Source: Cyanidioschyzon merolae | Lineage: Eukaryota | Strand: one strand, 5' to 3' | Assembly: GCA_000091205.1 (NCBI GenBank) | Contig: AP006502.2 | Length of the DNA: 64,000 nt | In this document: positions 6,850 to 46,010 of the stretch, piece after piece | Position numbering within the stretch: position 1 is the stretch's first letter | Layout of the letters: the number at the start of each line of letters is the position of its first letter | Notes under the pieces: model-generated | Databases searched by the model: none | What the model was told of the DNA's origin: nothing | What the model saw: only the letters and a program-made list of their open reading frames with translations | Program-made: the position numbers and the translations under genes

Positions 6850-7009
6850 GATTATCAGCGTCTCGTCGTGAATAGCTGTGGCTAGTGCATAGAGCTCTGC
6901 GCCCGTCCAGGTGTGTGCGCAAGCGCTCCTGAGCAACGCTCGTGCCAATAGACTGCTTCGCTCACTTGTGGTTGTCTAGAGCGTATGTATGCTCAGTGAA
7001 ACTAAAAAA

Positions 7010-7500
7010 GTCCCACGACCGTGTAGTGTATATATGCATCCCATTGCAGATGCCTCCCGGACTTTTTCGACCGGCCGCCCACTACTGGTTGTAACGTCAT
7101 CCCGTACAATTCGACCCTGAGCGGTTCTCCCACAAAGTCGGCTCGTATCAGCTCCGGGGGTCTCTTGTCCAGCACTGCACATCTCCCGATGTTGATAGCA
7201 GCGTTAAAGTCTCGGTTCGCGAACGCTATGCGTACCCTGCCTCTGGTTGAACTCACCATTGCAAGGATTCCTCGAACTTGTGTCCTCTGTTCTACTACAG
7301 TCTCGACCTCGTCCCGTCAGGCGAGCACCTTTTCTCGTCTACCTGTCCTCTTTTTCTTCGCCGCCGCGCGCTTTCCCTTGCTCGATGAAGGGCGAGAAGA
7401 GGATTTTTTCCTTGTTTTCGGACAGCCGGCAATGAGGCCCTCTAGGATCCGCGACTTCCATCTCTATACCTTAGCCTTTTTACATTTGTAAATGAACGCA
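7010..7500 (-). mobile_element. Fanzor/TnpB-like C-terminal remnant plus conserved tail, copy c1. This is the best-preserved RuvC-III motif.
   Basis: Minus-strand translation ...ILAMVSSTRGRVRIAFANRDFNAAINIGRCAVL carries D-x-NAA-x-NI, the RuvC-III signature of TnpB/Cas12/Fanzor. SSTRG and F.NRD align where TnpB has CxxCG zinc-ribbon motifs. Downstream 7010-7200 is about 75% identical to the tails of c2, c3 and c4. Confidence 0.5.
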
Positions 7501-8678
7501 CTTCGAGAGCATTTGCTCTAAACCACGAAAAAAGCATTAAATGATACGCACTTGGCGCCAGAGCACAGTTGAGGTGAAGTGCTATGACAAGAATCCTGCA
7601 CGTGCCAGGTCCGCAGCACGTCTAACATGCTCGTTGCTTTGCTCAGGGCAGAAGGTTGAGGCGCGAGCCTGATTAGCGTTGACGCGATCTGTGTTCCCAT
7701 GAGCGAAGCTACATTCTGGTGCATCAGGCGCAGTTGAGCGGATATCGGTGAGCTCACAAGTCGCCACAGGGTATGGTGCTGTGTGCTAGCCAGTCACCGC
7801 CCGCCACGTAGAACCCCGATAGCAGGACACGCAGGATACGATTCGGAACGACGAGCAACCGGGGATCGGTGCTGACCTTCTTCAGCGCGTCCAGAGCGGA
7901 GGCGAACCCTGTGCTCTATGTTTTTTCGTTCTCGATAATAGTTCCAAGACGCTCAATAGCTTGCGCACCCGCTTCGTGTCCAGGATCCGTGAGCGTGCTT
8001 CCACCAAGCGCCAGGTGCGGCTGTCGTTCTGGAACGCTACCAGCTGTTGCGAAGCAATCGTCAGCGTCAAGGGTGCAGGCATTTCTCGAATACGGCAGCG
8101 TGGAGTAGCTCTGAAACGCACGTTCGTACTTCAGGGTGCAAATCGCGACCTGGTAGCCGTCGATGTCCGCGATGGTGCGCAGAGAAGATACCAAACGCAC
8201 CTATCCATCCATCTTCCCAACTATGCATGTGTGCATGTGTGCGTAAAAGCAAGCAGGCGGCTATCCATGCGTCTATGTGCACAGGCAACCAGCAAGCAAG
8301 CAATCAAGCAAGTTGCTTTCTCAGGTAGAAGACGATATTGTGACCTGTGCGCCACGGTCTTGTGGCCATTCAGCAGCTACTGGTATAGGCAACGCAGCAG
8401 GTGCAGGAAATGACTGCGGACTCCAGCGAGCGCTGTATCGATATTGGGACACATGTTGTGAGAGCTGAACTGCAGTTTATTGGTGTGCGTGTCCTTCCCT
8501 GCGGGGTTTCCGTCCGTCTGGTATGGGTCTCCCCATGAGCGCGTACGCAATCAGGAAACATCGCTTCGTAACGCTCGCCGGTTCCTTTCGATGACGTTTC
8601 TGCGCTCCATGCGGAGCCTCTACATAGCCGTATCTCGTTCATGATGCTAATGCATGACTTTCCATGATCATGCATACC

Positions 8679-11526: not shown

Positions 11527-11644
11527 CTTTCTGGACGAGTTCGCTGCAGGAGGTCCCTAAAAGGCTGCCACGCTTCGTGTAGGATTCTTTCTGGACGAGT
11601 TCGCTGCAGGAGGTCCCTAAAAGGCTGCCACGCTTCGTGTAGGA
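11527..11644. repeat. 60-bp tandem duplication (about 2 units).
   Basis: aggattctttctggacgagttcgctgcaggaggtccctaaaaggctgccacgcttcgtgt is repeated exactly at 11581-11640 and 11521-11580. Confidence 0.85.
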
Positions 11645-12340
11645 GCCGCGGTCCATCACCCCTTGCCCGAGCGCTCGCGACTTGGATCTTATACAACTGG
11701 ATATTGTGAGCGGTATCCCCATGCTGAGGCTGTTTCTGCTGTGTTTCGTCGTCGCTGGGACATGGACTGGATCCTGATGCGGTGCCGATCTTGGTGGAAG
11801 CCTTCGCGCGCATCGCGCTCCACTCCTGTCGAGCACTAGAAACGGTCTGCATCGTTACGCCTCAGGCCGCGCACCAGCCCGCAGGCACGGTGCTGATGCA
11901 TGACGGAGCAAGGATGCATCCGTGCACCCATGTACTTATGCATTTACGCGTCTGTGCAGGCTGTCGCGCTTATGGCACGCAAACAGCCAGCGGCTCGAGT
12001 CTGAGCGCCCGCAGGCGCCCGGATTCTCGACACGTGTCCTGCGTGCGCGGTCCCGACGCACCGCATATGCGCAACTCTCCGAGGATAAGAATCGACAGTG
12101 GAATTCAGGGGTAGGTAGAAAGGTGGACGCTTTCCCAAAACGTTCGTACGAATCGCACCATAGGGCATCCCTGGTGAAAACGTTCTGCGAAACCAAAAAC
12201 TTGCGGGCATCTCCAGTTCCCCGTTTAAATCGTGAAGCAGTTAGTCCATCGAAATGAGATTCCTACACGAATATCCACTTATCTTTCCGTCGTCGTGTTA
12301 TTTTGTTAGATATGTTAAAAATCAGTTTCGCTATGCACAC

Positions 12341-14563: not shown

Positions 14564-17302
14564 TTATTCAGGGGGCGGTATACTGAAAGGCACGGTCTGC
14601 ATAACATTTTGCTCATTCCGAACGATGTTAGCTACGACCATATTCGCCAACATGGCCAGCTCTGGCGGAACTGCGGCGGATAATGCCAAGCCGCTCAGAA
14701 GCCGATGGACACCAAGGCTCTGCAGGGTTGCCCGGCCAGTTGGCGTAGCGCTCAAATTACACAATGCAGCTAATGCATACTGTTGTGATTCAATATCGAC
14801 GCTCTGGGTCGCATATTGAGCAAAGTAGGTACCAGCACCCAGCTTGAGCAAGTGTGGATGCAAGTCGACGTTGTTGGTCAGTTCAGCGAGAGCCAGCAGC
14901 GCCGCTCGAGCCGTCTCTGGATCCGTTCTTCGCTGCGCAACAGCGGAAGCAAGCACAGGCAGACCGTTGGCCTGAGCGATTCGAATACTGTTCTCGATCT
15001 GTTCTGCGAAAAGAGACAGGGCACGCACGCCATATCGACGCACGCTGGGGTCCGGGTCGGTTGCCAGACGGACGGCTGCTTCGACACCGCCAGCTTGCGC
15101 TGCCATCACCCGGGACAGCCCCCCGGTAGAGACATTAAAGAGTGCTCGTGCCAACTCTCGACGCAACGAGTCGTTGTTTCCAATCACCTCTGCTTGTACC
15201 TGATTACCAGACGCCTGCGCCCAGAGTGTTGGCAGCTTCATCAAGATGCGCAAAGCACCGCGAGATCCCAGCAGATCCAACTTGGCGTTGTCTATGCGCG
15301 AGAGATTGGCTATTGTGTGTACAAGTATCTGTGCTTCATTCGTTGACAGGCTTAAGCGTCCCTGCAAAATGCCATACAACGCTTGACAAAGCCCCTGGTT
15401 TGCTAACAAGTACAACGTATCGCTGTCCTCACTGAGTTGCCCAATGAGGCGCAGGAGCGAGCGGCATGTCGGCGAAGGCACACGAGAGGTCACGCCCTCT
15501 GCATCTGGGACGCAATCCGCTAAGCGCCGCACAAGGAACGATGCATCGCGCGCTATTAGCTGAACTCGTATTCGGGCGGATTGCATCATGACGGCAAAAG
15601 CGTCCAATGCTGCTGCTCCAACCGTGGCATGCGGCGGCCGGAAGCGATCAATCCCCTCGAAGGTTTCAGCTATGCGAAGCAATTCCCGATCAGCGCCATG
15701 GAGGAGGAATGCACGGCTCAGGTGTTCGCCCGGAGCTCCCGGGACTGAACACAGCGCCGCAATTGTTTTGCATGCGGCACGCTGGGGAAGCTCCATCTGG
15801 GCTGCGTCTCGCTCTGGACCTGTGTCGTTGCGACCGCTGAGATTCTCACGGAGCACGTCGAGCAGTGTCTCTGGGATGTGACATTTCTCGAAACGATTCG
15901 CTGCTCGCATATCAATAGCGGACGTCGTGCCAGGGCTCTTCGCGAATGCTGCATCCTGCAGTATGCGGAGCGCCATGGTGCGCAGTCCCGGCTCGTCCGA
16001 TCGTGCGATGACTCGACCAAGTCGCTCCAGTGCCTCCTCGCTGGTCAGGGCGGCCAGCATGGGAGCTTGGTTCGCAAGCGAACGAAGACCAGAAAGCGCG
16101 TACTGTGCAACGCTGGAATCATCTGACTCTAGCGCAGACAAAAGTTCCCGAAGAAAGTTCCGCTTCGGGGTGGCAAAAGCTGCGAGCCTTGAGACGTTCG
16201 CTATGCACAGTATGAGCGCTCTTTCGGTCTCTCGAATTTGCGCTTGTGTTGAAATCAGCATGGTTGTGTTCTTTTGTGCCTCATGAACGCTGGCCAAAGC
16301 ACAAGCGAGCGTCTTCATGAGGCGTGTTTCATCGGCTGAGGTCGCTGTGCTCCAAATGCTTTCACTTAGTGCGAGATTGGCAAGAATCCGTGCAACCTGC
16401 TGAATCAGCGGTGCGTTCAGTTGAGACCAATCTACTGGCTTCCGCTGGCGCCCGAAAAGGAACAAAAAGCCGCTAGTCATTCCGCCACACTGCGCAGCGA
16501 CACCTGCATCCCGGTTGAGGCAATGCAGGAGACTCCGCAACAGCGGTGTATCTCTGAGCTGCGAGTGGGTTTGTTTGTTCCGCACTATTTCCCCCAGAAT
16601 CTCCAGCAACGTCGTGCGCAAGTCAACGTCTATGTCCGGACGTTCCAACGTCTGGGCAAGGACTCCCCCGACTCCACAAGAGGCGAGTTCCACGGCAGTG
16701 CCCTGCTGCACAGCATACTGGAGGATTTCGTTCGCAGCCTCTTTAGCCGCCGCAAGTTCGGAACTTTTCACCACATCCATGAGCTCCCTGATACGTTTCG
16801 TGCAAGTTTCATCTGTTCGTGGGGAGCTCGTACCTGTGGACGCTGCACCACCGGGCCCGGTGTTCACGCCCGCGATCGTGATCGACTCTGAACTCGCGAC
16901 GCCGAGGTTCGCGCTCAGACCTGTCGGAAAGCCATAGAGTGCCACAAACGTGCAAGTTCCTACACTCAGCGCAAACTGCAACAAGCGCTTCGCGGTACCG
17001 TGCAAGCCACCAACAGCTGGACTCTGCGTGAGCGGGCGTGACTGCCACGGGAAAGCAGCACCTTGCCTAGGCCCTAGTCGCGCCGTCGTTTCCGTCCTAA
17101 ACCCTAGCGCTTGCTGCGAACTCTTTCCCAGCAACTTCTGCAGCGGACGCGCGATAGGCAACCGCTGCACAGACTGAAGCCTCCATAAAGTGAGCATGAT
17201 CGCGGGACCATGCAAGCGCAGCCCCAGTTCGCAGCAGAAGCTGCAGCGATGAATAGCGTATGGGAATTGGCTCCGCTTCCGCGCGGAGCAGGGCGTGTGC
17301 AT
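14564..17302 (-). CDS. Armadillo/HEAT-repeat protein, 912 aa.
   Basis: ATG confirmed (cat at 17300-17302). About 40-residue helical repeats rich in L/A with GN...AL.NL motifs recur (LANLALS, IANLSRI, LCNLSAT), as in ARM repeats. Confidence 0.55.
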   Translation of the reverse strand: MHTPCSARKRSQFPYAIHRCSFCCELGLRLHGPAIMLTLWRLQSVQRLPIARPLQKLLGKSSQQALGFRTETTARLGPRQGAAFPWQSRPLTQSPAVGGLHGTAKRLLQFALSVGTCTFVALYGFPTGLSANLGVASSESITIAGVNTGPGGAASTGTSSPRTDETCTKRIRELMDVVKSSELAAAKEAANEILQYAVQQGTAVELASCGVGGVLAQTLERPDIDVDLRTTLLEILGEIVRNKQTHSQLRDTPLLRSLLHCLNRDAGVAAQCGGMTSGFLFLFGRQRKPVDWSQLNAPLIQQVARILANLALSESIWSTATSADETRLMKTLACALASVHEAQKNTTMLISTQAQIRETERALILCIANVSRLAAFATPKRNFLRELLSALESDDSSVAQYALSGLRSLANQAPMLAALTSEEALERLGRVIARSDEPGLRTMALRILQDAAFAKSPGTTSAIDMRAANRFEKCHIPETLLDVLRENLSGRNDTGPERDAAQMELPQRAACKTIAALCSVPGAPGEHLSRAFLLHGADRELLRIAETFEGIDRFRPPHATVGAAALDAFAVMMQSARIRVQLIARDASFLVRRLADCVPDAEGVTSRVPSPTCRSLLRLIGQLSEDSDTLYLLANQGLCQALYGILQGRLSLSTNEAQILVHTIANLSRIDNAKLDLLGSRGALRILMKLPTLWAQASGNQVQAEVIGNNDSLRRELARALFNVSTGGLSRVMAAQAGGVEAAVRLATDPDPSVRRYGVRALSLFAEQIENSIRIAQANGLPVLASAVAQRRTDPETARAALLALAELTNNVDLHPHLLKLGAGTYFAQYATQSVDIESQQYALAALCNLSATPTGRATLQSLGVHRLLSGLALSAAVPPELAMLANMVVANIVRNEQNVMQTVPFSIPPPE

Positions 17303-17399
17303 CCCTCGATCCGCCCCGGGCGAGCGTGCTGCATGTCTTTTACGTACAGAACTGTTCTACCTAGAGCGCATCCCCGGATGATTATCCAGATACCTGTCA

Positions 17400-17900
17400 A
17401 ATAAACAAAAAATGTCCTGGGACCATATAGGATAAATTAATACTCATATGTAGACACCTCTCCGCCCTTTTCGACTCGCAGACTGTTACGCATTCAGTTT
17501 TGTCCAGACAACCTTCGAGCCTGAGAGGATACCCCGCGAAGTTGGATCGCGTCAGCTCCGCGGGTCCCGTCCTCAGCACCAATGATCGCCTGATGTTTAT
17601 GGCAGCATTAAAGTACCGGTTCATGAACTTCGTGTGGGCTCTGGCGCTGGTTGCGCTCATCAATGCAAGAATTGCGGGAACTCTCGTACTCTCTGTACCA
17701 TTTGATACTCGGTCAGCTCTCTGTGCGTTTCGATCGCAAAAGCGCTTCGCGGGCACTTCTCCAGGTCGACCTTCTGAAGTGGAGACCCCAGCTCACCCTT
17801 TTGTTTATTTTAAAACGAGCGAACTTGTTTGTTCGTTTTGGTGAGGACGTTCCCGGAAGCGGGAAAGACTTGCGGATGCAAGACCGGATGTATTCTGGTA
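17400..17900 (-). mobile_element. Fanzor/TnpB-like remnant, copy c2.
   Basis: Minus-strand ORF 17397-17756: ...ILALMSATSARAHTKFMNRYFNAAINIRRSLVLRTGPAELTRSNFAGYPLRLEG. Coding and tail are both alignable to c1 (VLDKRPPELIRADFVGEPLRVE). Confidence 0.45.
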
Positions 17901-18949
17901 TCACTGTGCGCTGAACGCTTAAGCGATTCTACCAATGGAGCGCTCAATAGGCTTAATTAAAGAAAAGCGTCCTTCGATGCGGTTGAACCACGGAACATAC
18001 GGAGGAATGCAAAGCAGTTCTACTCCGATAGAATCGGCAACAGCTCCAACGCAAGGGGAATAGAGAAATGCAACGTTGTCCAATAGAAAAGCGTCGCCAG
18101 ACGTCAGGGGAAAGTCTTCAATGGCTCGACGTAATGGGCGCTGTTGTATGAGTCTTCTCTACGAGCGAAACTGAGGCCGTAAAATGAATTCACCCCAGCT
18201 AGAACAGAAGATGGTGTCGTCATTCTCCGCGAGTTCAACCGTACATTCAGCAGGCGCCCAGATCTGCGAGTACCCATATACGCTCCGACCGTTTCATCCA
18301 AGGCAAGTCTCATCGAATGAAAGAACAGACCGACTTCACTCTGCCTCAGATCGATAGCGACGTTCCTGGAAACTGTCGTTGCGATTTCGATGGAGGACGG
18401 TCGTTCATGGCATTGGACATTTTCGCGACTGTATCCCAGTGTTTTTAGGACCATACGAACTAGCTATTGAGAAACAGATACGCCGTTGGCGGCTACCACT
18501 GTCGCTTTTGCTTTCCGTAAGGTGATCAACTGGTCGTTTGCTGCCATTTAACGCAGTCAGTCTTTAAGAATATCGGACATTGTCGCAGAGCGCATATTCA
18601 GGGTTCTTTCAGTGTTCCTTAGGTATCTGAGTTCTTTTACGTGGATGACCTGATGGAGGAATGCAGTCCTCCTTACACACGTCAGTAAAGAATATATATA
18701 TCCTGCAGGAAATTTTTCTACGATCTATAGAGTACATTGCATATTGACACTGATCTCCTGGTCGTCACCGCGAAAAAACATTCAATGACAAGCAGCAGTG
18801 CTGGAACACAGTGAGTTGAGGACGATCAACGGAATGCTTGCTCGTATAATCTTTCATCTCAAGTGTTTTGCCCCTCTGCTGCGCGTCATCAAATGCTTTT
18901 TCGTGCTTTCTAGCAGACGCGTATGAACTGCGTTTGTTCTCAAAAACAA

Positions 18950-19420
18950 AACATATAAGGAAAAAATTATGGACATAGAATTCGGGGATCCTGGAGGATC
19001 GCCATCCCCGAGTTCCAGAGAGAAACTGAAAAATTTCCCTCTCGCCAACCATCGAGCGAAGAAGAGCTAGTGATCGAGAAGAAAAAGAAAATGAAATGCG
19101 GAGATAGGCGAAAAATCGTGTTTAGCTCACGGGACGGTGACGGGATTGTAGTGGCGCGGAGGGCACAAGTTCGCAGAAGCCTTGTAATGTTGAGTTCGAC
19201 TAAAGCGAATAATCGTGTAGAGTTCATGAACCGAGGACTTAACGCTTCCATCAATATCAGACGATGTGTAGCGCTGAAGGAATTAGCCTACGTACTTCGT
19301 GGGGGAGCCTCTCAGGCTCGAAGTGAACAAGAGAAACTGAAATCGATAGCGGGGAGTTCGTCAAAAAAGGCCGGAAGCGCCTGCTAGTTGATGTGTATAT
19401 GCACTCTGTGGTCGCGAAAC
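18950..19420 (+). mobile_element. Fanzor/TnpB-like remnant, copy c3.
   Basis: ORF 19070-19387 (+): IEKKKKMKCGDRRK...LVMLSSTKANNRVEFMNRGLNASINIRRCVALKE. Tail 19290-19420 aligns to the c1 tail (cttcgtggggagcctctcaggctcgaagtg...gtcaaaaaaggccgg...tatatgcact). Confidence 0.5.
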
Positions 19421-19499
19421 CGATTTCGTATCATCGTCCATACACGTAACTCGAATGTACTACAAAGTTTAGGTCTTTCCCGTTTTAGCCAGGGCAAGC

Positions 19500-19700
19500 A
19501 TTTGCGGATATTTTTTCCGCGACTACTTCCTTTCCCTCTCTCTGATCTCCGACTTTAAAATGCGTAGGTCTCTCTTTCCCCTCAGCTCTGCTGTTGCGAA
19601 TCGAAGGAGGTTGATGGCATCGTTCAAGTTCGGACGACACAACACTATGCTGTATCCAATGCATTTAATTTACAGGTAAAATTTGCACTCAACGCACCGC
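19500..19700 (-). mobile_element. Short Fanzor-remnant fragment (tail plus RuvC-III-edge), copy c6, tail-to-tail with c3.
   Basis: Plus-strand 19540-19660 (ccgactttaaaatgcgtaggtctctctttcccc...aaggaggttgatggcatcgttcaagttcgg) aligns to c5 (ccgacctcaaatacgcggctctcttctctccc...aaaggatgttgacggcagcgctcaagtccc) and to c1. Confidence 0.35.
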
Positions 19701-19889
19701 TTCCCGGTTCCATCTTCTCGATTGGATGCAGCATCGGTGCGCCCATTGCGGTGGTGATACTAGGCTTTGGTCTGGTCTTCCCGTATGTCCATCCGAATGC
19801 TTCCACTTCCTCATGCTGTGCTGTAGCTCGTAGAAAATTGCTCGACCGCTCGGGACATGTCCTTGAGCGGTAGAGAGGCTCGCCTCAAT

Positions 19890-20750
19890 GCCCTCCTCCG
19901 TTCTCGTATCCGGTGCTGTACTCTGTGATCACGCCCTTATGCTAAGCGATCCCCGCGTCGAGCGCCCTCTCCGCTGCACATGCAAGGACACGCGGTTTCA
20001 TTCGAAAAAGAACTTGTGGAACATGGAATTCCCCATGACGTCAAAAGTAGTCGAACGACAATTCCTACTGGAGACCGACACAAAAAATAAGATATTTCGA
20101 CGCTGTATTTGTGAAAAGCGGCAGCGCTCTCTCCAATGGAAGCCATCCCTGCGATAACGAAAGCCCGAGTTCAAGACCGTTTCCTAAGCGAACGTAATAA
20201 ACTGGAGCATCTCGGAGCAAATAGCGTGAGAGGTAATGCTGCCGTTGAGTTGCATTTATTTTTCGGCCACAAAGGGTGAAGGATTGGCTCATCGAACGGC
20301 ATCGATTATTAGACGTGAGAATTTTTGTGAAATCTACGCACGAGCATGTGAGCAAGTCATCAGGAGGCAACGTCGAGTTTCTTTCCTCGCCCAACGAGAG
20401 GCGCGAATGGCGCACCCTCGAATCGCCTTCAACCAGCATGATTGAAAACCTGAACCATAAGTGATTTGAGTATGTGACTCGTATGGAAAGAAGAAGGGAG
20501 GAGGCTTTTACGAGTGTACTGGACAATTATATCTCTTGTTTACGAAGCATGTTCGATGGCATCGCGTCTCCTATTGAAATCGATGACGTAACGAAGTCCA
20601 GTGGCACAGCGTCAAATGCGCCACTCCAAAGAGCGCGACCTAGAATCCTGAAATTCGTTATGAATCCATGCGCCTTTACTTCAGAACTTTGGATCTCGAG
20701 GCTGTACTTGTAAGAAAGTTCAAGAAAATATTCAAGGCAGGAACAGAACG
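19890..20750 (+). mobile_element. Degenerate Fanzor/TnpB-like element, copy D (RuvC-II/helper-like region through to the tail).
   Basis: 19888-20157 (+): SGAVLCDHALMLSDP...TRFHSKKNLWNMEFPM parallels HGLVLSDP...TLFHSIKNQWNAMLSM of copies A and C. NVEFLSS at about 20370 resembles the RVEFMNRG zinc-ribbon remnant. Tail 20580-20720 is about 80% identical to 25690-25830 (the tail of copy B). Confidence 0.4.
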
Positions 20751-21626
20751 AAGAGTTCAATGTTGCAGGTTCATCTGACATAGGGTAGATGCCGTGGGGC
20801 CCACTCAGTCTCACTGAATAACTTGCAGGCTCGGTTTCGCCACAGCAGATCCTGCACGAAACATTCATATTGGTGAGCTTGCACAAATGGCATTTGGATG
20901 CATTCGGAAAACACGGACCGCTAGCATTGATCCAATGCACACAGTTCCCGTTCCTGGACGCTGGACGGCCGTTCATGTCGGCGGTCGACCAGCTCCACAG
21001 CGTGCAGCTTGCGCATCTGCCTGCGCATCAAGGATGAATGGCGAATCCGAAACAGTGTCGATGCGTTTCCGGATGCCGTTGACGTGCCCCATGAAGCATG
21101 CCGGGCAATCGCATTCGAAGTATAGCCATCGCGAACGCGCTTCTATGGGGTCATCAGGCATCGGGCCGCATTTGTGATCCAACACTTGGTCGTCGTCGAT
21201 CATTCTTGGACCTCTCTGCCCCAAATCCGGTATCCCTATGTGCCTTGTACCCTTCTTCGTTGCATCTAGAGAAGATCACCAGCAAAGACACCTCTGGAGT
21301 GCTTGCGCTCAACAGCGGCATTGATGCCGCCAACGGGGCTTCCCGCGTTTAATGATTCCGCGACACCTGCGCTGCGGCAGGACCAAGGTCAGTAGCAGTT
21401 TTGGGTTTCGTGCGCCGCCCACAGAGGGTACTTCCACGCACGCGCTCTGTGGGTGACTTTTCCAGCCAGTGCAGCTGCTCAGGCTTTCGCGCCAAGCGCG
21501 TATCTGCCTGTAGTGGAGCGTACTCTCGGGGGTGAAACCTGGTCCGGCGCAGGCGCTTTTGCGTCCTGGAAAGAACGCCCACGTGCGTAGCAGCACGCCC
21601 TCTGCCGGGCTGCTTCCAAAGCTCCA

Positions 21627-24104
21627 ATGGACCGGAACGTTCAGGCTAGTTTCCAGTTGGATGATCTTTGGCTCACACTCCAGCCTGGAGGTGCCTCGGA
21701 ATCAGTCTTTCGACGTGTTGAGTTCGTTTTTCAGGCCGTTCTAGAGGGGCGGGAGAGTTTTCGCGGTGTTGGACTCCGCCTCCCTGAGCTTATAGACTGC
21801 ATATTCGGATTCCAGGACAGATCGCGGGGGTCTTGGAGTGAAACTGTGTCTGGTTGGCTCCCAGATTGTGAACGTCGCGCAGCACGTCCCGGGGACGCAG
21901 ACGCGCTTGTTTCGCTATTAGAGCCTCGCGGACCGCTCTTCCAGACACTGCTTTGTCACGACGAACGATACACCTATGATTTTCCGCTACAAAACTTGCC
22001 TCAGCCGCTTTTAGACGAAATCGCTGCGGTGCTCAGTGGCGAAGACGCGAATGTACGCGCTGCTGTGGCAGCGTCGCCACACCCAGATCGGAAACCCGAG
22101 AACCTCCCTACTGGAGAATACTCCCCGTTAGCCTACTATTTGTCAGCACACGTGACCGACCCCACTCACGATACCGTTCGAATTGGCGCTGCCCGATACT
22201 ACCTGCTCTGCTTCCTGGCCTATCCGGTGTATGCTCGCCATCCAACGGTCAATGAGCGCTTCACCTCGGCCTGGGACACCTCCGCTCGTCAGCACATATA
22301 CGAGCGCGTGCTGTTGGCCTTCCTCCAGGAATTCGCGTCACTGCAGCAGCTGCTTCATCAGCATGTATCATTTGAGCGTTCTGCCGCAACTACACTGTCT
22401 GTCGCTGACCTTTTCGTCCACGCATGGGTTGCGTTCTGGTTTCACTGGAATGGAGAGCTTTGGCCCTGGAATGGATGGCACGACGCAGTAGCCAATGACT
22501 GGGGCCAAATGCAGCTCGCTCGCTATCGCGAGCGACACAGCGTTCCATCGCTGCTGACCATGAAATGTCAACGCTTGGCGATGATGCACGTCATGGGGGT
22601 TTTCGAGACCCACGCTGATCAGGTCGAGCGATGGAGTGGATGCCAGCACATCATCAATCAAGATCGCGTGCCCGTGAGACATTCCGAACCATTTGCTGGA
22701 GAGTCTTCGGCATCGCGCGATACGGGCGTCCCGCGGAAAATCCCCTCCGCGGGAACACCATCGCTGCAAGTCTACTTGAATATTCCTCTCGGTTTGCAGC
22801 ATGTTGATGCGAGTTGGCGAGCGTGGCATCCAAACCAACTCGGCTCATCGGGGGCGGCGCAACGGACGAATCCACTCCTCCGTTTCCTTCTGATCGTGTT
22901 TTGCCGCTACTTTTGTCGCACAATACCTCGTATGCAGCAAATGTGCATTGATCTGGATGCGTCGACGAATGTGGCCTTTCTAAAGACCATTTCTGCGTGG
23001 CTTTTCCCCTGGGATCAGGCCACGGAGCTTTCAGCGCTTTTGGAAAAGGCACGGGATCAACGGGGACGTCGCGTTGCCCTGCTCCATGGTCTCGCACTAT
23101 TGCATACGCCTTTTGTGGAAGAACCGCGGAAATCGTCCCAATACAAAACGTCTTGCTGGCGACGTGTACTTGCCCTGCATTTTCCGCTCTACGTGCGGTT
23201 GCTTGTGGACATGCTCAACATTCTCGTCCGCTCGCGCTGTCTGCTGCAGAGCCCTGGTGCCCTTGAATTCTACCTGGATTTGCATCGCAGTGCGCAGTGT
23301 CGTGATTGGCTGGCTGATCTTCAGAAGATTGCGCATTCAACGCGAGCAGTCGAGTCTCGACAACAACCATGCATCGAAGCATGGTCGGAATTCCAACACT
23401 CCAGGTGTTCACCGAATCTGTCGGAACTGGCAGGTCTCGATTGTGATGCGTTTCGACAAACGCTGCGTGAGCTTCGGCTGCAGCTAGAGCGACGCTTGCA
23501 TTCCAGCTGGAACACCTCGGCGGTGTTCTTGAGTCGGTTAGCACGAGACCGAGCGGCGCATCTCGTTGAGCCGTGGATTCAACTCGTTGAACCTGCGGAA
23601 TTCCCTGGATCACCGAAGGCACGCGATCCATTGAGCAACGCATCCGTTCAGGCACTCGATGATACCGATTCTCTGGGTGTGATTCATCGGCGACTTCCAG
23701 CGTTATCGCCAGACCGTAGCGTAACGTCGCCAGGAGGTGCTCCACAACACTCAGCAGCGGCGGCGGGCGCGAGGGAGCCGACCACGCCCCCTTCCATGTC
23801 AACTTCGGCGTCAAGTCGGACAGACTCGGAAATGTTACCTCTTGGAGCTCAGATTGCGCTGGGTCGGAAAAAATGCTCTAACCTGGATATCGTGCCTCGT
23901 GGAGATGCATGGAGATGGCCAAAACAGAGCAATGAGTTCGGTCCAGCGCTTGTTCTGGCCCGGCGTCTCGCTCTAAAACTGGAGCAACTTACTGGAGTGT
24001 CGTGGAATCTGCGCTTTTTGGCATCGTATGTGGTGATCGGCTATCTTGCCGTGGGTTTGACACTCTCGCTACTCTGGTTGATGGTCGTTTCCGGAATTTT
24101 CTAG
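21627..24104 (+). CDS. SMPD4: Sphingomyelin phosphodiesterase 4 (neutral sphingomyelinase-3, SMPD4) homolog, tail-anchored.
   Basis: ATG at 21627. N-terminal blocks ELIDCIFGF...SGWL / LLEPRGPLFQTLL / YTYDFPLQNLPQPL parallel SMPD4 IFPWLVESIFG...VGWNL / FLDPGGPMMKLVY / YKFDFPVSYLPGPV. C-terminal NLRFLASYVVIGYLAVGLTLSLLWL parallels the SMPD4 [23 protein letters not shown] membrane anchor. Confidence 0.6.
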   Translation: MDRNVQASFQLDDLWLTLQPGGASESVFRRVEFVFQAVLEGRESFRGVGLRLPELIDCIFGFQDRSRGSWSETVSGWLPDCERRAARPGDADALVSLLEPRGPLFQTLLCHDERYTYDFPLQNLPQPLLDEIAAVLSGEDANVRAAVAASPHPDRKPENLPTGEYSPLAYYLSAHVTDPTHDTVRIGAARYYLLCFLAYPVYARHPTVNERFTSAWDTSARQHIYERVLLAFLQEFASLQQLLHQHVSFERSAATTLSVADLFVHAWVAFWFHWNGELWPWNGWHDAVANDWGQMQLARYRERHSVPSLLTMKCQRLAMMHVMGVFETHADQVERWSGCQHIINQDRVPVRHSEPFAGESSASRDTGVPRKIPSAGTPSLQVYLNIPLGLQHVDASWRAWHPNQLGSSGAAQRTNPLLRFLLIVFCRYFCRTIPRMQQMCIDLDASTNVAFLKTISAWLFPWDQATELSALLEKARDQRGRRVALLHGLALLHTPFVEEPRKSSQYKTSCWRRVLALHFPLYVRLLVDMLNILVRSRCLLQSPGALEFYLDLHRSAQCRDWLADLQKIAHSTRAVESRQQPCIEAWSEFQHSRCSPNLSELAGLDCDAFRQTLRELRLQLERRLHSSWNTSAVFLSRLARDRAAHLVEPWIQLVEPAEFPGSPKARDPLSNASVQALDDTDSLGVIHRRLPALSPDRSVTSPGGAPQHSAAAAGAREPTTPPSMSTSASSRTDSEMLPLGAQIALGRKKCSNLDIVPRGDAWRWPKQSNEFGPALVLARRLALKLEQLTGVSWNLRFLASYVVIGYLAVGLTLSLLWLMVVSGIF

Positions 24105-24559
24105 TTGCGGCAATGTTTCTTGAGCGTGGCGGGCTTTTGGCAATTTCCGGAATCAGGGATTCGCTTGTAAAAATAGAATGCCACATCTATTCGGGATATG
24201 TGTACATGTTCAGAGCATGCGCCTCACCCGTATTGAGATTGTCCATCGAGAACCTGGTGGGCGGTTTTGGAATCAGAAACCGCCCAGGTGTTTCCATAGC
24301 CCAGGATGACTGGATCGTCTCGCAGCGCTCCGGGATGAAAAGGATCGATGACCGTGAACAACTGCGTACCTTACTGGACTGTACCTGGCGCATGGCGCTC
24401 CTGGGAAGGCCCCTGCTTGCCCAAAGGCGACTGCTGATCAACCAGAGCATGCGGAAGCGCCGAATTCTTTTAAGGCGACGCTTCAACGATCCAACGATAC
24501 GGTTTTGCGCCCCCTACATCCATCGCAACATGAATTGGAACAGTTCCTACAACACGGGC

Positions 24560-24830
24560 GTATGAACTAAAGTTCAGGTCTCTTCCAAGTGTGATTGACA
24601 GCAGCCTTTTTGAGCTCTCTCTACGACGGCTTCCTCATCCCTTCGCCGTCTCCTTTCCGACCTCAAATACGCGGCTCTCTTCTCTCCCTGCACCTCTGCC
24701 CTTAGTAATCAAAGGATGTTGACGGCAGCGCTCAAGTCCCGATTTCGCCGCTTCCGGCTGTTGCCTGCGCATTGCAGGAATAGGTACAATTTGGAATCTA
24801 CGCATGACTTGCTATTTTCATCGTTCTTGT
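24560..24830 (-). mobile_element. Fanzor-remnant fragment, copy c5 (internally deleted), head-to-head with copy B.
   Basis: Plus-strand aaggatgttgacggcagcgctcaagtcccgatttcgc...cattgcaggaatagg aligns to c1 cccgatgttgatagcagcgttaaagtctcggttcgc...cattgcaaggattcc. The upstream tail is conserved with c1 and c6. Confidence 0.4.
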
Positions 24831-24989
24831 ATGTATTGTCGGTGCTCCTTTGGTAGCAGCGCTATTTTTGGTCGTAGACAGGTCATCCAGCATATCCATC
24901 ACACTTACTACTGCGAAAGTCGCCTTGTGGATCGTGAACACAATCCTCATCGCTCGGTTCATGCCCTTGACCGGTACAGAGAGCTCACT

Positions 24990-25830
24990 TTGATGGCCTC
25001 ATTCGTTTTTACATCCAGTGTGGTACTCTATGGTGACGGGCGTGTTGTGAGCCATTCCTTCGGCAAGTACTCAGTTGGCTGCACGTGCAAAGCACATGTT
25101 ATTCCATCCGATTGAGGATTCGTGGAATGCAATGCTGTCCACAATGAAACAAGTGCGGAAAGGAAAATATACCCTTGAGAAGAAGTCGAGAAATCTCGAT
25201 CCATCTCTGCAGCCTTCATACAAAGAGGTGATGCACGCTCCACTGGAAGCGATCACCGCGGGGATTGCATTGCGAATCAAAACCACTACTTTCGTACCAA
25301 GGAAAGAGACGAGAGCATCTGTGATCATATCTCGTGAGAGATACAATTCTGCTATCGAATGGCTTTTCGTGAATTACCGCAACGAGAGGAGTGCTTGTCT
25401 TTAGACCTGCGTTGAGTTTGTTGACCGGAGAAGATCCATGATCTCTAGGCATGGGCTTGTGAAGAACTCATCAAGAGACGACACTGAGGTTCGCTCCTCG
25501 TCAACCAATGGCGCGAATCGCTGCGCCCAGATGTGACAGTGAAACGGAAAGATCGAAAAATGGACGAGTTCGGGATTGGAGCACCCCACACACGTACGGA
25601 AAGGACGTGCGTTGGGTCTTGCACGCACGAATTGGATAATCATATCGGTTATTTTACGTACCCTGGTTTGATTGCGTCGCGAATCATCCCGTTGCCAGTG
25701 GAGTAACGAATTCCAGCGGCACAGCGACGCAGGAACCACTAAGAAACGCCGGCCGAGAATCCTAAAATTACGTATGGATCCGAATTCTCGAATTGCTACG
25801 TTTCGAAGATCTTGGCTGTATACTTAAAAT
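24990..25830 (+). mobile_element. Degenerate Fanzor/TnpB-like element, copy B.
   Basis: 25075-25404 (+): LFHPIEDSWNAMLSTMKQV...LEKKSRN...ERYNSAIEWLF (RuvC-III remnant, compare RGFNAAINI). Tail 25480-25700 aligns to the c1 tail (cagatgtgacagtg; gcacgcacgaattgg). Extreme tail 25690-25830 matches 20580-20720. Confidence 0.45.
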
Positions 25831-26689
25831 CTCTGGAACAATCGAAAAGCATGAACAGAGCGAAGAGTCGAGTGTTTCATATCAATCTGACCGGGATATA
25901 GTTTTTAGCGCTAGTTTTAGGCCATTGTGGTTTCTTCAGCTTGCCGTGCATCGGCAGACATCACCTCTGCTCATTATCTCATTGATTGCTTACGCTTTAG
26001 CTCATAAGAATTACAAGCCCAAGCACATACCTACCCCGTCGAGTCGATGTTTGATGAAAGTGTTTCGCATACACGAGAGATGCTGCGAGATAAATGCGCA
26101 GGCGGGCGCTCTTTCGAAAGCCCTCGGGAAACGAGTGTTCCCTCACAGCCCACAAGTATCTCCTTGAATCCTCGTCTGACAGCATTATGCTTCCGAAATC
26201 GTCGACGCCTTCCAATATCTCCGGGTATTTGAGTCGATTTTCAGCACAGAGGTGTACCGCGAAATTGCTTCTCGCAACGTGACGTCTCGTATGCAATTCG
26301 TGGAAAAGCAGGGACGGTCTTCACCCCTGGCCTTGACGATCATCTACTCACGCTGTCAATCCAGCTCTGTTTCAAACTCGAGTTATGTCCCAAAATATGC
26401 AAACCCTACTCTGTTCGGTCGTCGCCTCCGTGCCCACATAGTTAGCGACGCTTCCGCATCGCTTGGGCATGCGGCTCCGCGGGAACGCGATCGATTTGAT
26501 TGGATCGCGCGCTGGCCCCATGGCCTGGGGTGCTCCCTGGGAATAAAACGATGCTGTATGCAGACTCGGAACCTCGATCGCAGACGGATAAAGTGACAAA
26601 TGCCCGCGTAGGATCAACACGTTAGTACGTTCTTTAACATCCCGTAGCGCGTTTCGTTGCTCGGTTTTTTATTCTTGACTCGCGTGAGC

Positions 26690-43329: not shown

Positions 43330-45099
43330 CCACCACGTCCTGTGACGACTCAGTATAAAACCTGTGCCCAACCCTGCGCGTAAAACTCAATGAAAACAAA
43401 GCGCGTGATACCTGGAAGCGCAAGGCGGATCGCAGAACAGAAATCTCTGTTCATTGTAGGAGAAATAGGCATTCGATCGATCCGAGTATGGACGCGTGGC
43501 CTGGGGAGCAAACAGCGCCGGCTGGTGGCGCCTCGAGGGCCGGTGGCGGCACGTGCCGCTTCCGCGCACAGGGCGGCGCTTTTGTTGTGGCCCGGACCTA
43601 GCGGGGAAGCCGACGGAGATGGTTCATATTTGTCTATTAATGAATAAGAATATGAAGCGGCAGCAGGGCAATCGAGGTCTCCGCGCTCTTGCGCGTACCC
43701 CGCTGGACAGGAAAATGCGTACGCGCGCGCGGCTCGCATCCGATGATCGACACCTGTGATCGATACACATGCGATACTGAACTGCTCGTGCTATCCCTGC
43801 GTTGTGACTTGTCGCAAATTGCAGCGTTAAACGGACAACCTAGAGATCAAAAGTGCATGCATAGGAGATTACGGGTGCATATATAGGTATACGATTTTTG
43901 ATCGATTTTGTTCGGAGTGGGTTCTTCGAAGCTTTTGCGCCTGGGATTCGTTACGTTCCCAGAAACAAGATGACTGGGGGCGGCGCCCACAAATAATGAT
44001 TGGGAAAATAACCAATGTCGCGATGCAGCGTATGCGTCCAAGTCTCCGCTATTCTTCTATCGTTACATGTATCATGTTCAAATCACGTATTCTTCGTGGT
44101 TTCGATCGCACTGTTCTGAAGCGAGTCGTGCACGCAGTAATGCACGTCGCCGGATTGGCCACGAAACCAGAGCTCAACGTCGACTCTCGAAGGCGTTTTT
44201 CACATCGAATCATTTGTCTCGTTCGAAACACAAATCCGCCTCTGTTTCGAGGCATCGACCAATCGGCATTCGCCTGGAGCATAATACCTGTCACGGGATA
44301 TGCTCGCAAGGGCCCCTGTCTCTTCTCTTTGCATTCAAAAAAGGGTACTGGACACGAGCTCCAGTTATCGCAACGATCACTTCCCGTGGACCATAAGCGG
44401 ATGGAAAACTCTCGATCTCTCCTCTAACCTGGATTCCGCTTCCGAAACGTGTTCCATCATGACCAAGATCGCGTTTCATAAATCCCGTCTCGAATGGAAC
44501 ACTGCGCGCTTGCGCTCGCGGAGGATACCCTATTTACTGCGTGAATCGCACAGAAAAAACATGTGATCATGCGATACGACGATGTGTGCGAAAATGCAGG
44601 ACGGTACCGAAAGAAGCCTTCCGTAGTGTCCAGGTACATGCGGCAATCGATGAAGCAAGCGTTCAAGCTGCACTAGCCGCCGATAAAAGAGAGGGCACTT
44701 GTTGCGATGGACATCTGGGACGCCTGACCGCTGCCAAGTGTCACTGCTGCGAGGGACGAACCGAGGTCGCGTTCGAAGAACGTGCGTAGATCACAACTTT
44801 TGCCGGTGCATGAATCGCGTGAACAACACCCAGAAGCAGCGAAATCGGCGACTTGGACGCTACGATCAATACCCCTTGACCGGCATTAACAGAGCTGAAC
44901 AGACAGGAGAGATCGACGTAATCTGAGCCTGAGACCATACGGAGGTAAGGCAGGCAGTCGGAGACGAATCCCTCAAAGACTTTTGTTCATGACTGTGGGA
45001 AGCATCCCAAACTTGAGAATGTACGCTCGAGTTAGACCAGTGGACCTGCACCTTTCGATTCTGATATCGCGAGATGCTCGGTCGAGCAAAGAAGCAGAC

Positions 45100-45660
45100 G
45101 TCGACCGGGGGCTGGCGGGTACATCTATTCAGCCAATCCCAGACGCCTTCCAGCCTTTATTAGGCCGGCCGACTGCTAACGGTTTCAGTTTATCCGGGCA
45201 CACTTCGAACCTCAGAGGCAAACCCCACGAAGCTGGATTACGTCAGGCCGTCGTGTCTCGTCTTCAGCACCACACAGCGTCTGATATTGATAGCAGCGTT
45301 GAAGCCCCGGGTCACGAACTCCATGCGTTTGTTGCCTCTGGTCGAACTCACAAGTGCAAGAATTGCTAGAACTCGTGCCCCATCAGAGCCACTACAGTCT
45401 CGACATTGTCCTGTCGGGCAAGCACCGTGTCCCGCACATCTCCGCTCTTCCTCGTCTTTTGCTTCTACATCACTTGCTCTTCTTCGCTCGATCGTCGGCG
45501 AGAAGAGGATTTTTCTGTTTCCTTTCCAGTACCCGGCGATCTCGGGCCCGCCAGGACCCCTGACTTGCACGTCCATATCCGCCCCTTGGGTTTCTTACTT
45601 GTCCAAACGAGCACATGTCGAAAACGTCCAGCATAAACCGCAAAAAAAAGCACTTGACGC
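45100..45660 (-). mobile_element. Fanzor/TnpB-like remnant, copy c4.
   Basis: ORF 45238-45576 (-): ...RRCAGHGACPTGQCRDCSGSDGARVLAILALVSSTRGNKRMEFVTRGFNAAINIRRCVVLK. A cysteine cluster is retained upstream of RuvC-III. Upstream DNA is about 80% identical to c3 (atcgagcgaagaagagc.agtgat). The tail aligns to c1. Confidence 0.5.
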
Positions 45661-45787
45661 AACGCACCTGGAGATGGAACGCAATTCAGATGAAAGTCCA
45701 GAACGCACGCTGCGGCACCGGATCGCCGCAAGATCGCAGGCGCGCAGCGTGCACAGACGGCGCCTTTGCCGCTGAGGGTAGCGTCCG

Positions 45788-46010
45788 TCACGAGAAGCGG
45801 CCTGTGCGCGTCTGTCACGAGAAGCGGCCTGTGCGCGTCTGTCACGAGAAGCGGCCTGTGCGCGTCTGTCACGAGAAGCGGCCTGTGCGCGTCTGTCACG
45901 AGAAGCGGCCTGTGCGCGTCTGTCACGAGAAGCGGCCTGTGCGCGTCTGTCACGAGAAGCGGCCTGTGCGCGTCTGTCACGAGAAGCGGCCTGTGCGCGT
46001 CTGTCACAGC
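45788..46010. repeat. 27-bp minisatellite, about 8.5 perfect units (GTCACGAGAAGCGGCCTGTGCGCGTCT).
   Basis: Seen directly. It translates as (HEKRPVRVC)n or (VTRSGLCAS)n in overlapping ORFs and lies immediately beside remnant c4. Confidence 0.9.

Follow-up and report, generated by a model that had tools for sequence, protein, structure and literature searches.

The armadillo-repeat gene and the SMPD4-like gene of the red alga Cyanidioschyzon merolae point away from each other, and the 4.3 kb between them raise the question of what fills this spacer and how it arrived there. We analyzed a 64-kb stretch of DNA around the locus (hereafter the window), which belongs to chromosome 20 of C. merolae 10D; its proteins match CMT genes exactly. 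The first-pass annotation had described the spacer as free of host genes and as holding four nuclease copies in alternating orientation, termed c2, c3, c6 and D. The former claim was confirmed: no long host ORF is present from 17302, where the armadillo ORF ends, to 21627; the 877-aa orthologous gene call in a close strain (contig L003, 468-3101) implies an armadillo start at ~17197. The latter had to be revised to three elements, with c6 and D forming one element on one strand. The island consists of three decayed non-autonomous DNA transposons, which are Tc1/mariner-like and come from Fanzor-carrying families. The features of the locus are:

14564..17302, minus strand: armadillo-repeat host gene, left border (ORF of 912 aa; Pfam ARM_ARMC5/Arm matches)
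17397..17795, minus strand: c2, tail of Element A, 3' part of a T-family (CMe-1-like) Fanzor1 gene (translation, blastn, hmmsearch)
17796..18841, minus strand: M, a Tc1-like DDE_3 transposase remnant, body of Element A (Pfam, tblastn, repeat alignment)
18757..18917, no strand: head-to-head junction of Elements A and B (local alignment)
18851..19445, plus strand: c3, or Element B, a T-short deletion derivative of 0.6 kb (blastn, A2 profile)
19420..20787, minus strand: Element C, or HD, H family, earlier c6 and D (collinearity, consensus, TIR, tblastn)
20788..21626, no strand: spacer upstream of SMPD4 without repeat-family match
21627..24104, plus strand: SMPD4-like host gene CMT338C, right border (exact match to BAM83296.1 / XP_005539332.1)

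The Pfam mit_SMPDase match on the SMPD4-like ORF is weak. The repeat-free spacer upstream of this gene, together with positions 17303-17396, is presumably what is left of the ancestral promoter region. Rfam searches at gathering thresholds and a tRNA scan across the window gave no matches. Pfam searches with single window ORFs were mostly empty, and domains were recovered only through the reconstruction of consensus sequences.

In Element A (17397-18841, minus strand), the remnant of a Tc1-like DDE transposase precedes a Fanzor1 gene with an internal deletion. Its tail c2 is indeed a minus-strand nuclease remnant, as had been proposed, and represents the C-terminal part of a TnpB/Fanzor protein. 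The RuvC-III motif NRYFNAAINI (17592-17621) has a Tyr in place of the catalytic Asp. Using blastn, c2 matches positions 5080-5424 of contig L006, and profile A2, which was built from metagenome copies only, detects it with E=1.2e-18 (hmmsearch). The 1.1-kb core between c2 and c3 is AT-richer, as noted before (GC 0.464 at 18-19 kb versus ~0.55 elsewhere), but it is not anonymous sequence: it is a repeated Tc1-like DDE_3 transposase remnant, M. Its catalytic core runs from 18370 to 17904 and includes IPPYVPWFNRIEG at 17970-18008 (tblastn); the 5' region of Element A lies at 18757-18841. The Pfam model DDE_3 matches the window ORF with E=2.3e-4 and reaches 58.6 bits on a consensus of four M copies (cut-off 28.6). 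The consensus triad is DD34E-like, with SDET...LLLDN followed by the Glu of NRIE, 34 residues separating the second Asp from the Glu. M is 66-70% identical to loci L044, L046 and L065 across 0.9-1.05 kb, collinear with the T part, and M together with T-short is collinear at five loci (the window, these three and L014). The transposase copies in the window are frameshifted.

Element B is c3, for which the assignment as a plus-strand nuclease copy was supported by its RuvC-III motif and by a match to profile A2 (E=4.7e-10). Its 3' limit is uncertain and falls between 19418 and 19445. The element joins ~190-230 nt of the 5' end of a Fanzor element to ~250-330 nt of its 3' end, matching L006 at 3132-3311 and 5153-5425 (blastn), and this deletion junction is common to the copies T7 and T45 of the window and to four metagenome copies. 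In its RuvC-III motif, NRGLNASINI (19229-19258), Gly replaces Asp. Elements A and B meet at their 5' ends, where the homologous stretches 18757-18819 (A, minus strand) and 18854-18917 (B, plus strand) form an inverted repeat ~34 nt apart, with a local alignment score of 23 versus 8.5 ± 1.4 in shuffles.

Element C accounts for the remaining two of the four proposed copies. That c6 is a minus-strand tail was verified by the RuvC-III remnant NLNDAINL at 19607-19630, and c3 and c6 are indeed oriented tail-to-tail. D had been taken for a separate nuclease copy on the plus strand; however, 19452-20790 aligns collinearly over 1.3 kb, as a single unit, with four further window copies, and the coding sense of D is minus. 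D is thus the body of the element that ends in c6, and it consists largely of transposase rather than nuclease sequence: tblastn places a transposase N-terminal remnant at 20706 to 20081 and a Fanzor C-terminal remnant at 20004 to 19475. The head TIR is located at ~20760-20787; at the junction with c3, part of the tail TIR has been deleted or overlapped. Further copies of both families in the window are:

6986..7578, minus strand: T7, a T-short copy with intact NRDFNAAINI at 7188-7217
24500..25900, minus strand: HB, a single H-family copy, earlier c5 and B (transposase part 25823 to 25095)
43748..45696, no strand: second tail-to-tail pair of T-short and H (one 2-kb collinear HSP with 18851-20790; termini)

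HB, with an intact RuvC-III motif (NRDLSAAVNI, 24715-24744), replaces the head-to-head inverted pair that had been seen in c5 and B. The second pair consists of H44 (43748-45076, gene sense plus) and T45 (45119-45696, minus), the latter with the RuvC-III motif TRGFNAAINI at 45283-45312.

The H family comprises 18 distinct 1.4-kb copies with a star phylogeny and 52-61% pairwise identity. Their consensus, read on the minus strand, is a transposase N-terminus fused to a Fanzor C-terminus. The N-terminal part scores 38.5 bits with DDE_3, and two Asp motifs, the first and the second, are present in it (IDET, IMDN); helix-turn-helix models match less well (HTH_Tnp_Tc3_2, E=1.6e-4 and 22.3 bits, below the cut-off of 31.5; HTH_33, E=4.3e-4). 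The C-terminal part matches Cas12f1-like_TNB (PF07282; 31.2 bits, cut-off 26.3, E=2.5e-7) and shows REHLTTVKCHRC...CMKC...NRD, that is, CxxC...CxxC and NRDLNAAINI. The consensus of the 18 copies ends in TIRs of 26 bp (5' CACCCGTGTCAGATTAAAATGGAACA, reverse complement of the 3' end CACCCATGTCAGAATAAAATGGAACA) with TA directly outside both; in old single copies TA is found at ~5/9 heads and 6/9 tails. A homology search with the H consensus returned one decayed copy (P0067) and no intact H-family protein on record. A periodicity-3 test on an alignment of five H copies gave no coding signal, and tblastx matches are spread over several frames; judged by these sequence patterns, the similarity among the copies is neutral and at the DNA level.

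The T family includes L006 (3047-5452), a near-full-length copy with VVGADPG (RuvC-I), IDEFRTS (RuvC-II) and NRDFNAAINL (RuvC-III), and 43 distinct T copies were collected from C. merolae-like metagenomes. c2, c3, T7 and T45 match the 5' and 3' ends of such full-length copies (T-full) and share one internal deletion. The zinc finger of the family is not a canonical C4, and the TNB/zinc-ribbon model (PF07282) gave only E=0.22 on the tail of L006. The 5' region of T-full is homologous to that of M (z=10.6), and the bases following the shared part resemble, by eye, the final transposase codons; together this fits a deletion of the transposase from T-full. In the T/M family no TIRs or TA duplications could be demonstrated, individual M+T composites giving only chance 6- to 12-mers, and younger T-full copies have short hairpin-forming palindromes near both ends instead, making the transposition chemistry of T less certain than that of H. 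When 43 T 3' regions were folded with RNAalifold, no convincing omegaRNA-like guide RNA structure emerged (-10 kcal/mol, 15 pairs, one compensatory). PDB sequence and profile searches with the T-family Fanzor yielded no relatives, and a homology search with the T7 tail yielded six short decayed proteins only. The RuvC-I region of L006 has a weak tblastn match at 37.5 and 50.1 kb; it was first regarded as low-complexity, but profile A2 supports a third Fanzor-like remnant there.

In all three island motifs (c2, c3 and Element C) the RuvC-III Asp is mutated, RuvC-I is missing entirely from the island copies, and c2 and c3 also lack RuvC-II. Since no copy has the full catalytic constellation, the island holds remnants and not genes.

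An empty-site comparison, which the first-pass annotation had suggested, was carried out with related genomes. Two related species keep the armadillo(-)/SMPD4(+) synteny (SMPD4 is 46-47% identical) with a spacer of only 671 and 680 nt, in which no T, H or M repeats were found. HB is likewise absent from the syntenic interval of a relative (L089). In the close strain represented by L003 the island is present at 99.3% identity; an empty site is therefore not to be had from close strains. The short, repeat-free spacers of the relatives support adjacent insertions into a divergent promoter region. Together with the observations that the pieces stop at family ends and that neighboring copies are no closer to each other than to copies at other loci, they support the earlier suggestion of repeated adjacent insertion. 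We consider it very probable that separate insertions of three Fanzor/Tc1-like non-autonomous elements, now dead, built the island.

The alternative that fares best against these data is that the clustering was targeted, with elements preferring to insert beside the termini of resident copies and immediately 5' of host start codons. Such a preference might stem from a transposase that binds element ends and promoter chromatin, or from cuts guided by Fanzor/omegaRNA and repaired at sequences flanking a tail. Copies abut tail-to-tail in c3/HD, in T45/H44 and in a T-full/T-short pair in L044, and head-to-head in Element A/c3. In 22 of the 43 distinct T copies the ATG of a long host ORF (taken as the first ATG rather than a mapped transcription start) lies at most 310 nt from the Fanzor stop, 18 in the same orientation and four in the opposite one; the arrangement of c2 and the armadillo gene fits this pattern, and element heads mostly point toward divergent gene starts (12 versus 2). 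However, in a compact genome the tolerated sites are mostly promoter-side spacers, and retention bias alone can yield such patterns. In addition, none of the ~18 other H tails has an abutting T, and neither a guide-RNA structure nor a conserved flanking motif was found. Targeting is therefore unlikely in our view. That the Fanzor1 Tc1-like elements of C. merolae, rather than being passively scattered, are placed, or selectively kept, directly upstream of host ATGs, in sense and flush against the termini of other copies, we regard as quite unlikely. If true, it would suggest promoter- or end-directed integration, possibly by Fanzor/guide-RNA cutting beside a resident tail, or else that element tails routinely serve as promoters where spacers are very short, with the island as a stacked example.

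Co-option of the remnants as promoter or 5'UTR of the armadillo and SMPD4 genes, or as non-coding RNA, is very unlikely. In its favor, c2 ends 95-200 nt away from the ATG of the armadillo gene and runs in the same direction, an arrangement repeated in many other copies, and environmental strains keep the block at 99% identity. The between-strain divergence of the block (1.18%), however, matches the 1.07% of the non-TE spacer and is roughly double the 0.49-0.52% of the flanking coding sequence, showing no constraint; the Rfam and tRNA searches gave no candidate for a co-opted RNA, and in relatives the two genes are expressed from an element-free spacer of 0.67 kb.

Duplication and rearrangement of one ancient segment in place would explain the orientations as well as the T/H pair at 43.7-45.7 kb, and has, if anything, a slimmer chance. 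18851-20790 is collinear with 45696-43746 as one 2-kb HSP, and T and H abut tail-to-tail only at these two sites, 0 of ~18 other H copies doing so. Yet the similarity ends exactly at the family termini and the flanks are not shared. HD and H44 are 57% identical, inside the range of all H pairs, and c3 and T45 are 68% identical, inside the 60-72% of T-short pairs, with private shared indels of at most three columns. The junctions are also unlike, as both termini are complete in T45/H44 whereas ~10-30 nt are missing in c3/HD. The star-like identity matrices and the differing junctions thus speak against the two pairs as sister duplicates. The least probable reading, a composite transposon in the manner of Tn5/Tn10 with c2 and c3 as inverted arms mobilizing the core, draws on the outward tails of c2 (-) and c3 (+) and on the DDE transposase remnant between them, but is largely refuted: c2 and c3 are 62% identical while each is 64-72% identical to copies elsewhere, L044, L046, L065 and L014 carry the core with a c2-type arm and nothing c3-like opposite, and c3 is an independent element, of the family to which the core belongs, that abuts the core head-to-head with its 5' end. 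From the composite element proposed earlier, c2 plus core thus stands as one unit, collinear at four to five other loci, and c2-core-c3 does not.

Under the preferred reading of separate insertions, the divergent armadillo/SMPD4 spacer would have grown from ~0.7-0.9 kb to 4.3 kb in three separate events. The elements belong to two distantly related Tc1/mariner-type families with a DDE_3 transposase, H having TIRs and a TA target duplication. In the full-length ancestors, a Fanzor1 gene (for a TnpB-like RNA-guided nuclease) probably came after a transposase gene; this architecture is a reconstruction from deletion derivatives, and no intact autonomous copy with transposase and Fanzor was found for either family in ~0.7 Mb of related sequence. 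Element A would have kept the transposase while its Fanzor gene was internally deleted, Element B would have lost the transposase and the Fanzor interior, and in Element C a deletion would have fused the transposase N-terminus to the Fanzor C-terminus. Such derivatives would be immobile alone and, following the literature, may have been cut and pasted by the transposase of an intact relative supplied in trans, while Fanzor and its guide RNA may once have kept or re-copied the element. The copies would owe their persistence to the tolerance of this compact genome for insertions in a divergent promoter region, and all island elements are now dead and drifting neutrally.

A Fanzor1 family of C. 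merolae is known: CMe-1A has ~150 copies that are ~80% identical to the consensus and is accompanied by TE-N2_CMe with ~70 copies (PMC3627910). Bao and Jurka (2013; PMC3627910) found neither TIRs nor TSDs in CMe-1A and left its class unknown; they gave the Fanzor1 constellation as D...[TS][TS]-x-x-[C4 zinc finger]...RD and described Mariner-borne Fanzor1 in other species. An association of Mariner/Tc1 transposons with Fanzor has also been reported (PMC10530073). We infer from copy number, divergence and size, the comparison being with the published descriptions only, that T corresponds to CMe-1A / TE-N2_CMe. Both come from the same genome, and ~80% identity to a consensus implies ~64% between pairs, like the 60-72% of T; CMe-1A is described as 'around 3 kb', compared to ~2.65 kb for full-length T. 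TE-N2_CMe resembles T-short in being small (~0.6 kb) and in accompanying the longer element in dozens of copies, although it was described as the 5' 635 bp of CMe-1A, whereas T-short combines a 5' and a 3' piece. In contrast to the 2013 account, T is linked here physically and by sequence to a Tc1-like DDE transposase, M+T sharing the T 5' end, and TIRs and TA flanks are evident in the second family, H.

DDE_3 and Fanzor1 are likewise united in one element in SPu-1 (33-bp TIRs, TA TSDs), Mariner-2_PGv and Fanzor1c-Mariner/Tc1 (PMC10530073). Mariner/Tc1 Fanzor1 elements have TIRs of ~26-33 bp with TA flanks, as H does, and abundant Fanzor-only non-autonomous derivatives; in contrast, there are deletion derivatives only here, and the H fusion unit of 1.4 kb was later amplified. 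The bacterial TnpB-omegaRNA (OMEGA) elements of IS200/IS605 and IS607 share a homologous RuvC nuclease (RuvC-III RD-NAA-NI, zinc ribbon) whose gene is placed 3' in the element, as well as frequent TnpB-only non-autonomous copies; they differ in their Y1 or serine TnpA, which is replaced here by DDE_3 cut-and-paste, and the present elements have a eukaryotic host and no detected omegaRNA. Tc1/mariner MITEs and internal-deletion derivatives are similar in size (0.6-1.4 kb), in defined ends and a common deletion breakpoint, in their burst-like star phylogeny and in promoter-side intergenic sites, but the elements described here keep recognizable coding fragments of transposase and Fanzor and not TIRs alone.

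The island itself is unremarkable, a cluster of decayed transposons in a genome from which a Fanzor1 family had been described before. The additions are modest: a link between the Fanzor elements of C. merolae, which had no class in 2013, and Tc1-like DDE transposases; a second, abundant family of chimeric transposase/Fanzor deletion derivatives; and a bias toward sites just upstream of host genes. These elements make up ~16% of the 64-kb window and are mostly located in divergent promoter regions, often 100-300 nt from a host ATG. This promoter-side location matters for the annotation of this model red alga, and for the choice of intact Fanzor copies and their flanks in studies of guide RNAs or target sites.

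The island lies between two divergently transcribed genes in a window of about 55% GC with many genes and few introns. The products of five long ORFs in the window are identical to C. merolae 10D proteins, SMPD4 being CMT338C (BAM83296.1).

14564-17302, minus strand: armadillo-repeat ORF
21627-24104, plus strand: SMPD4

No Pfam-domain ORF was found between these two genes. A 60-nt unit is perfectly duplicated in tandem elsewhere in the window (11525-11644), inside or beside ORFs at 11289-11852.

A sensitive self-comparison of the window revealed two old dispersed repeat families, T and H, with pairwise identities of 58-72%.

6986-7578, minus strand: T copy T7
17403-17692, minus strand: T copy c2, limits from the self-comparison
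18851-19445, plus strand: T copy c3
45123-45696, minus strand: T copy T45
55-1281: H copy
19452-20790: H copy, c6 and D
24514-25891: H copy HB, c5 and B
45064-43746: H copy H44
58553-59711: H copy

Together with the transposase repeat M, these copies total about 10 kb, or about 16% of the 64-kb window, the 2.75-kb duplicates described below not counted; the transposon content first reported for the C. merolae genome is said to have been much lower. The 5' end of T45 abuts about 11 tandem copies of a 27-nt unit (45754-46050, 79-100% identical), and this array gives rise to ORFs in several frames.

The first-pass annotation had described four nuclease remnants in alternating orientation, an observation which was confirmed in part. 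c2, c3 and c6 are genuine and lie where they had been placed, and A2, a profile built from metagenome copies only, matches the ORFs of c2 (E=1.2e-18) and c3 (E=4.7e-10). c6 and D had been taken as separate copies, but they form one collinear 1.3-kb block that aligns whole with four other copies and represents a single copy; likewise, c5 and B are a single collinear H copy instead of a pair. D, listed as a plus-strand nuclease copy, continues c6 without a break and consists largely of transposase remnant on the minus strand. The island holds three elements instead of four: Element A (c2 and the core M), Element B (c3) and Element C (c6 and D, copy HD).

Translation showed that one frame of the T family corresponds to the C-terminus of a TnpB/Fanzor nuclease, with the following RuvC-III motifs.

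7188-7217: NRDFNAAINI, T7
17592-17621: NRYFNAAINI, c2
19229-19258: NRGLNASINI, c3
45283-45312: TRGFNAAINI, T45

The T7 tail, used as a homology query, led to protein P0004, encoded on contig L006, where a near-full-length T gene in three ORF pieces (3047-5452) carries the motifs VVGADPGNTN (RuvC-I), IDEFRTS (RuvC-II) and NRDFNAAINL (RuvC-III). The two halves of the 0.6-kb copies T7, c3 and T45 match L006 at 3132-3362 (5' end) and 5080-5425 (3' end), and these copies have one internal deletion junction in common, also present in four further loci; such short copies (T-short) are non-autonomous deletion derivatives. Metagenome contigs contained 414 matching stretches, the best 80 of which yielded 43 distinct T copies from C. 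merolae-like hot-spring samples, with amino-acid identities of 74-100% over the last 178 residues. Matched by published description only, the T family fits the Fanzor1 family CMe-1A (~150 copies, ~80% identity to the consensus, around 3 kb) and its companion family TE-N2_CMe (roughly 0.6 kb) (PMC3627910). The longest T-family ORF has 623 aa (L078 4735-6606) and contains a tandemly triplicated block of roughly 25 aa (ETQKVQDNVLVVDAMKHEEK...) shortly before the RuvC-I motif. Near each end, younger full-length-type copies (T-full) carry a short palindrome that forms a hairpin (L006 ~2885-2900, 5' palindrome GCGCTCGATGAGCGC; ~5500-5535, 3' palindrome CGTTCGACTTTCGAACG), and terminal inverted repeats are not obvious in them; these ends differ from those of the H family and recall Helitron2 or IS605-type ends. 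A conserved RNA structure was not found in the T 3' region, nor was there an Rfam match in the window.

An ORF at 17919-18083 (minus strand) matches Pfam DDE_3, and the whole stretch of 17800-18841, previously noted as an AT-richer core, belongs to the M repeat family. Copies in L044, L046 and L065 align with M over 0.9-1.05 kb at 66-70% identity, and L014 has part of a copy. In translation, the consensus of four copies contains SDET...LLLDN...(34 residues)...E of NRIE and scores 58.6 bits with DDE_3 (cut-off 28.6). Since M continues at each of these loci into a T-short copy on its own strand, always through the same junction, c2 and the core are one unit, Element A (17397-18841, minus strand). 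Younger T-full copies have a 5' region homologous to that of M (alignment score 24 vs 10.8 ± 1.2 for shuffles), and the bases following it resemble, as read from the sequence, the end of a transposase ORF. These data fit a T/M ancestor consisting of 5' end, Tc1-like transposase, Fanzor1 and 3' end, from which T-full may have lost the transposase, M+T the Fanzor interior and T-short both. The 5' ends of Element A (18757-18819, minus strand) and c3 (18854-18917, plus strand) make up an inverted repeat with a gap of about 34 nt (score 23 vs 8.5 ± 1.4 for shuffles), showing that two elements of one family lie head-to-head. A further DDE_3-like remnant (L086 6454-6789), with only ~30% identity to the consensus of M (E=2.3e-10), suggests that these genomes contain a third lineage of Tc1-like transposases.

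The H family is represented by 18 distinct copies of about 1.4 kb each; every pair shows 52-61% identity, and the phylogeny is accordingly star-shaped. The consensus of these copies has no long ORF on the strand first annotated as plus; its minus strand encodes two joined parts. The transposase part (MYSLEIRS...FGVAPSTLCRW...VAIDETAF...IMDNIAFHKS) is a Tc1/mariner-type N-terminus reaching the second catalytic Asp (DDE_3, 38.5 bits), and the Fanzor part (...VVVDIREHLTTVKCHRC...CMKC...NRDLNAAINI...) is a Fanzor C-terminus from RuvC-II onward (Cas12f1-like_TNB, 31.2 bits), both scores being above the Pfam cut-offs. The island copy contains both parts.

20706->20081, minus strand: transposase part
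20004->19475, minus strand: Fanzor part

Inverted repeats of 26 bp, CACCC(G/A)TGTCAGA(T/A)TAAAATGGAACA, bound the consensus, with TA directly outside both ends, which is still seen in most individual copies. The inverted repeats, TA flanks and domain content identify H as a Tc1/mariner-type non-autonomous element, whose two genes were apparently fused by internal deletion. The H and M transposases are distant homologs (31% identity over 55 aa, E=1.6e-6), and the Fanzor tails of H and T have the RuvC-III motif as their sole shared part; T/M and H are two separate families. In the best-preserved H copy seen (L025 7314-8527 / L017 9802-11015), the reading frame can still be followed across the entire transposase part (a single HSP of 247 aa, 52% identical to the H consensus) and on through the Fanzor part.

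The first-pass interpretation, adjacent insertions or a composite element, was supported in its first part. A close environmental strain (L003) is 99.3% identical over 14097-34105, island included. More distant relatives retrieved by a search with SMPD4 (P0068, 47% identity, including NCBI assembly GCA_041825655.1; P0069, 46%) conserve the order armadillo (-), SMPD4 (+) and the downstream synteny (Mak16, methyltransferase), with spacers of only 671 and 680 nt in which nhmmer and tblastn found no match to T, H or M. The non-repeat remainder in the window is about 930 nt (17303-17396 and 20788-21626). These short repeat-free spacers establish that the island block is a lineage-specific set of insertions. 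Downstream of SMPD4 the relative's interval is about 1.5 kb shorter, in agreement with HB missing there. Local rearrangement or duplication within the window is suggested by c3 and its neighboring H copy being collinear with 45696-43746 over 2 kb; however, the element ends are the limits of similarity, neither HD and H44 nor c3 and T45 resemble each other more than other pairs do, and the junctions (c3-HD vs T45-H44) are unlike each other. Nor is there support for c2 and c3 as the arms of a composite transposon: they share 62% identity, which is no more than unrelated copies do, and the M+T unit is found elsewhere without a second arm.

The adjacent insertions have decayed neutrally. RuvC-I is missing from the island remnants, the catalytic Asp is gone from all three RuvC-III motifs and the transposase frames are broken. 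Divergence between 10D and L003 is 1.18% in the transposon block, 1.07% in the non-transposon spacer and 1.07% in HB, compared to 0.49% and 0.52% in the armadillo and SMPD4 coding sequences. Neither divergence nor lost motifs nor broken frames give a sign of constraint on the island remnants.

Two T/H tail-to-tail pairs occur in the window and none at ~18 other H tails. At L044 4053-5034 (also in L047), a T-full and a T-short copy are tail-to-tail with their 3' termini nearly in contact (last codons 129 nt apart), an M copy following directly, and the head-to-head pair of Element A and c3 is a further end-to-end contact. Among the 43 distinct T copies from the best 80 of 414 stretches (loci L010-L088), 22 carry a Fanzor stop that lies no more than 310 nt from the first ATG of a host ORF of at least 250 aa; 18 of these T copies run in the orientation of the ORF and four in the opposite one. 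T heads mostly face a divergent gene start (12 vs 2), at larger distances. c2 conforms to this pattern: it shares the strand of the armadillo gene, and 95-200 nt separate its terminus from the start of that gene (17197-17397). This placement could reflect retention bias in a compact genome, promoter-region targeting or a promoter function of the tail.

A third, more distant Fanzor-like remnant lies on the minus strand in both copies of a 2.75-kb direct duplication (36720-39468 / 49350-52111; 97% identical, 12.6 kb apart).

37552-38124, minus strand: RuvC-I region, A2 profile E=1.7e-6
37123-37368, minus strand: RuvC-II region, A2 profile E=2.7e-7
50158-50757 and 49753-49998, minus strand: equivalent A2 matches, second duplicate

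Its RuvC-II Glu appears to be replaced (IDGCRT). The two remnants are probably the fuller nuclease copies 'A' and 'C' of the first-pass annotation.

From established knowledge of Tc1/mariner elements, the insertions would have arisen by cut-and-paste at TA with transposase supplied in trans. Going by the literature on Fanzor and TnpB (PMC10530073), the nuclease of intact ancestors may have used a 3'-encoded guide RNA, and nuclease and guide RNA might have re-copied the element after excision. Taken together, the island is an ordinary cluster of dead transposons of a kind already reported in the C. merolae genome, to which we add the Tc1-like classification, a second, chimeric family (H) and the promoter-side placement.
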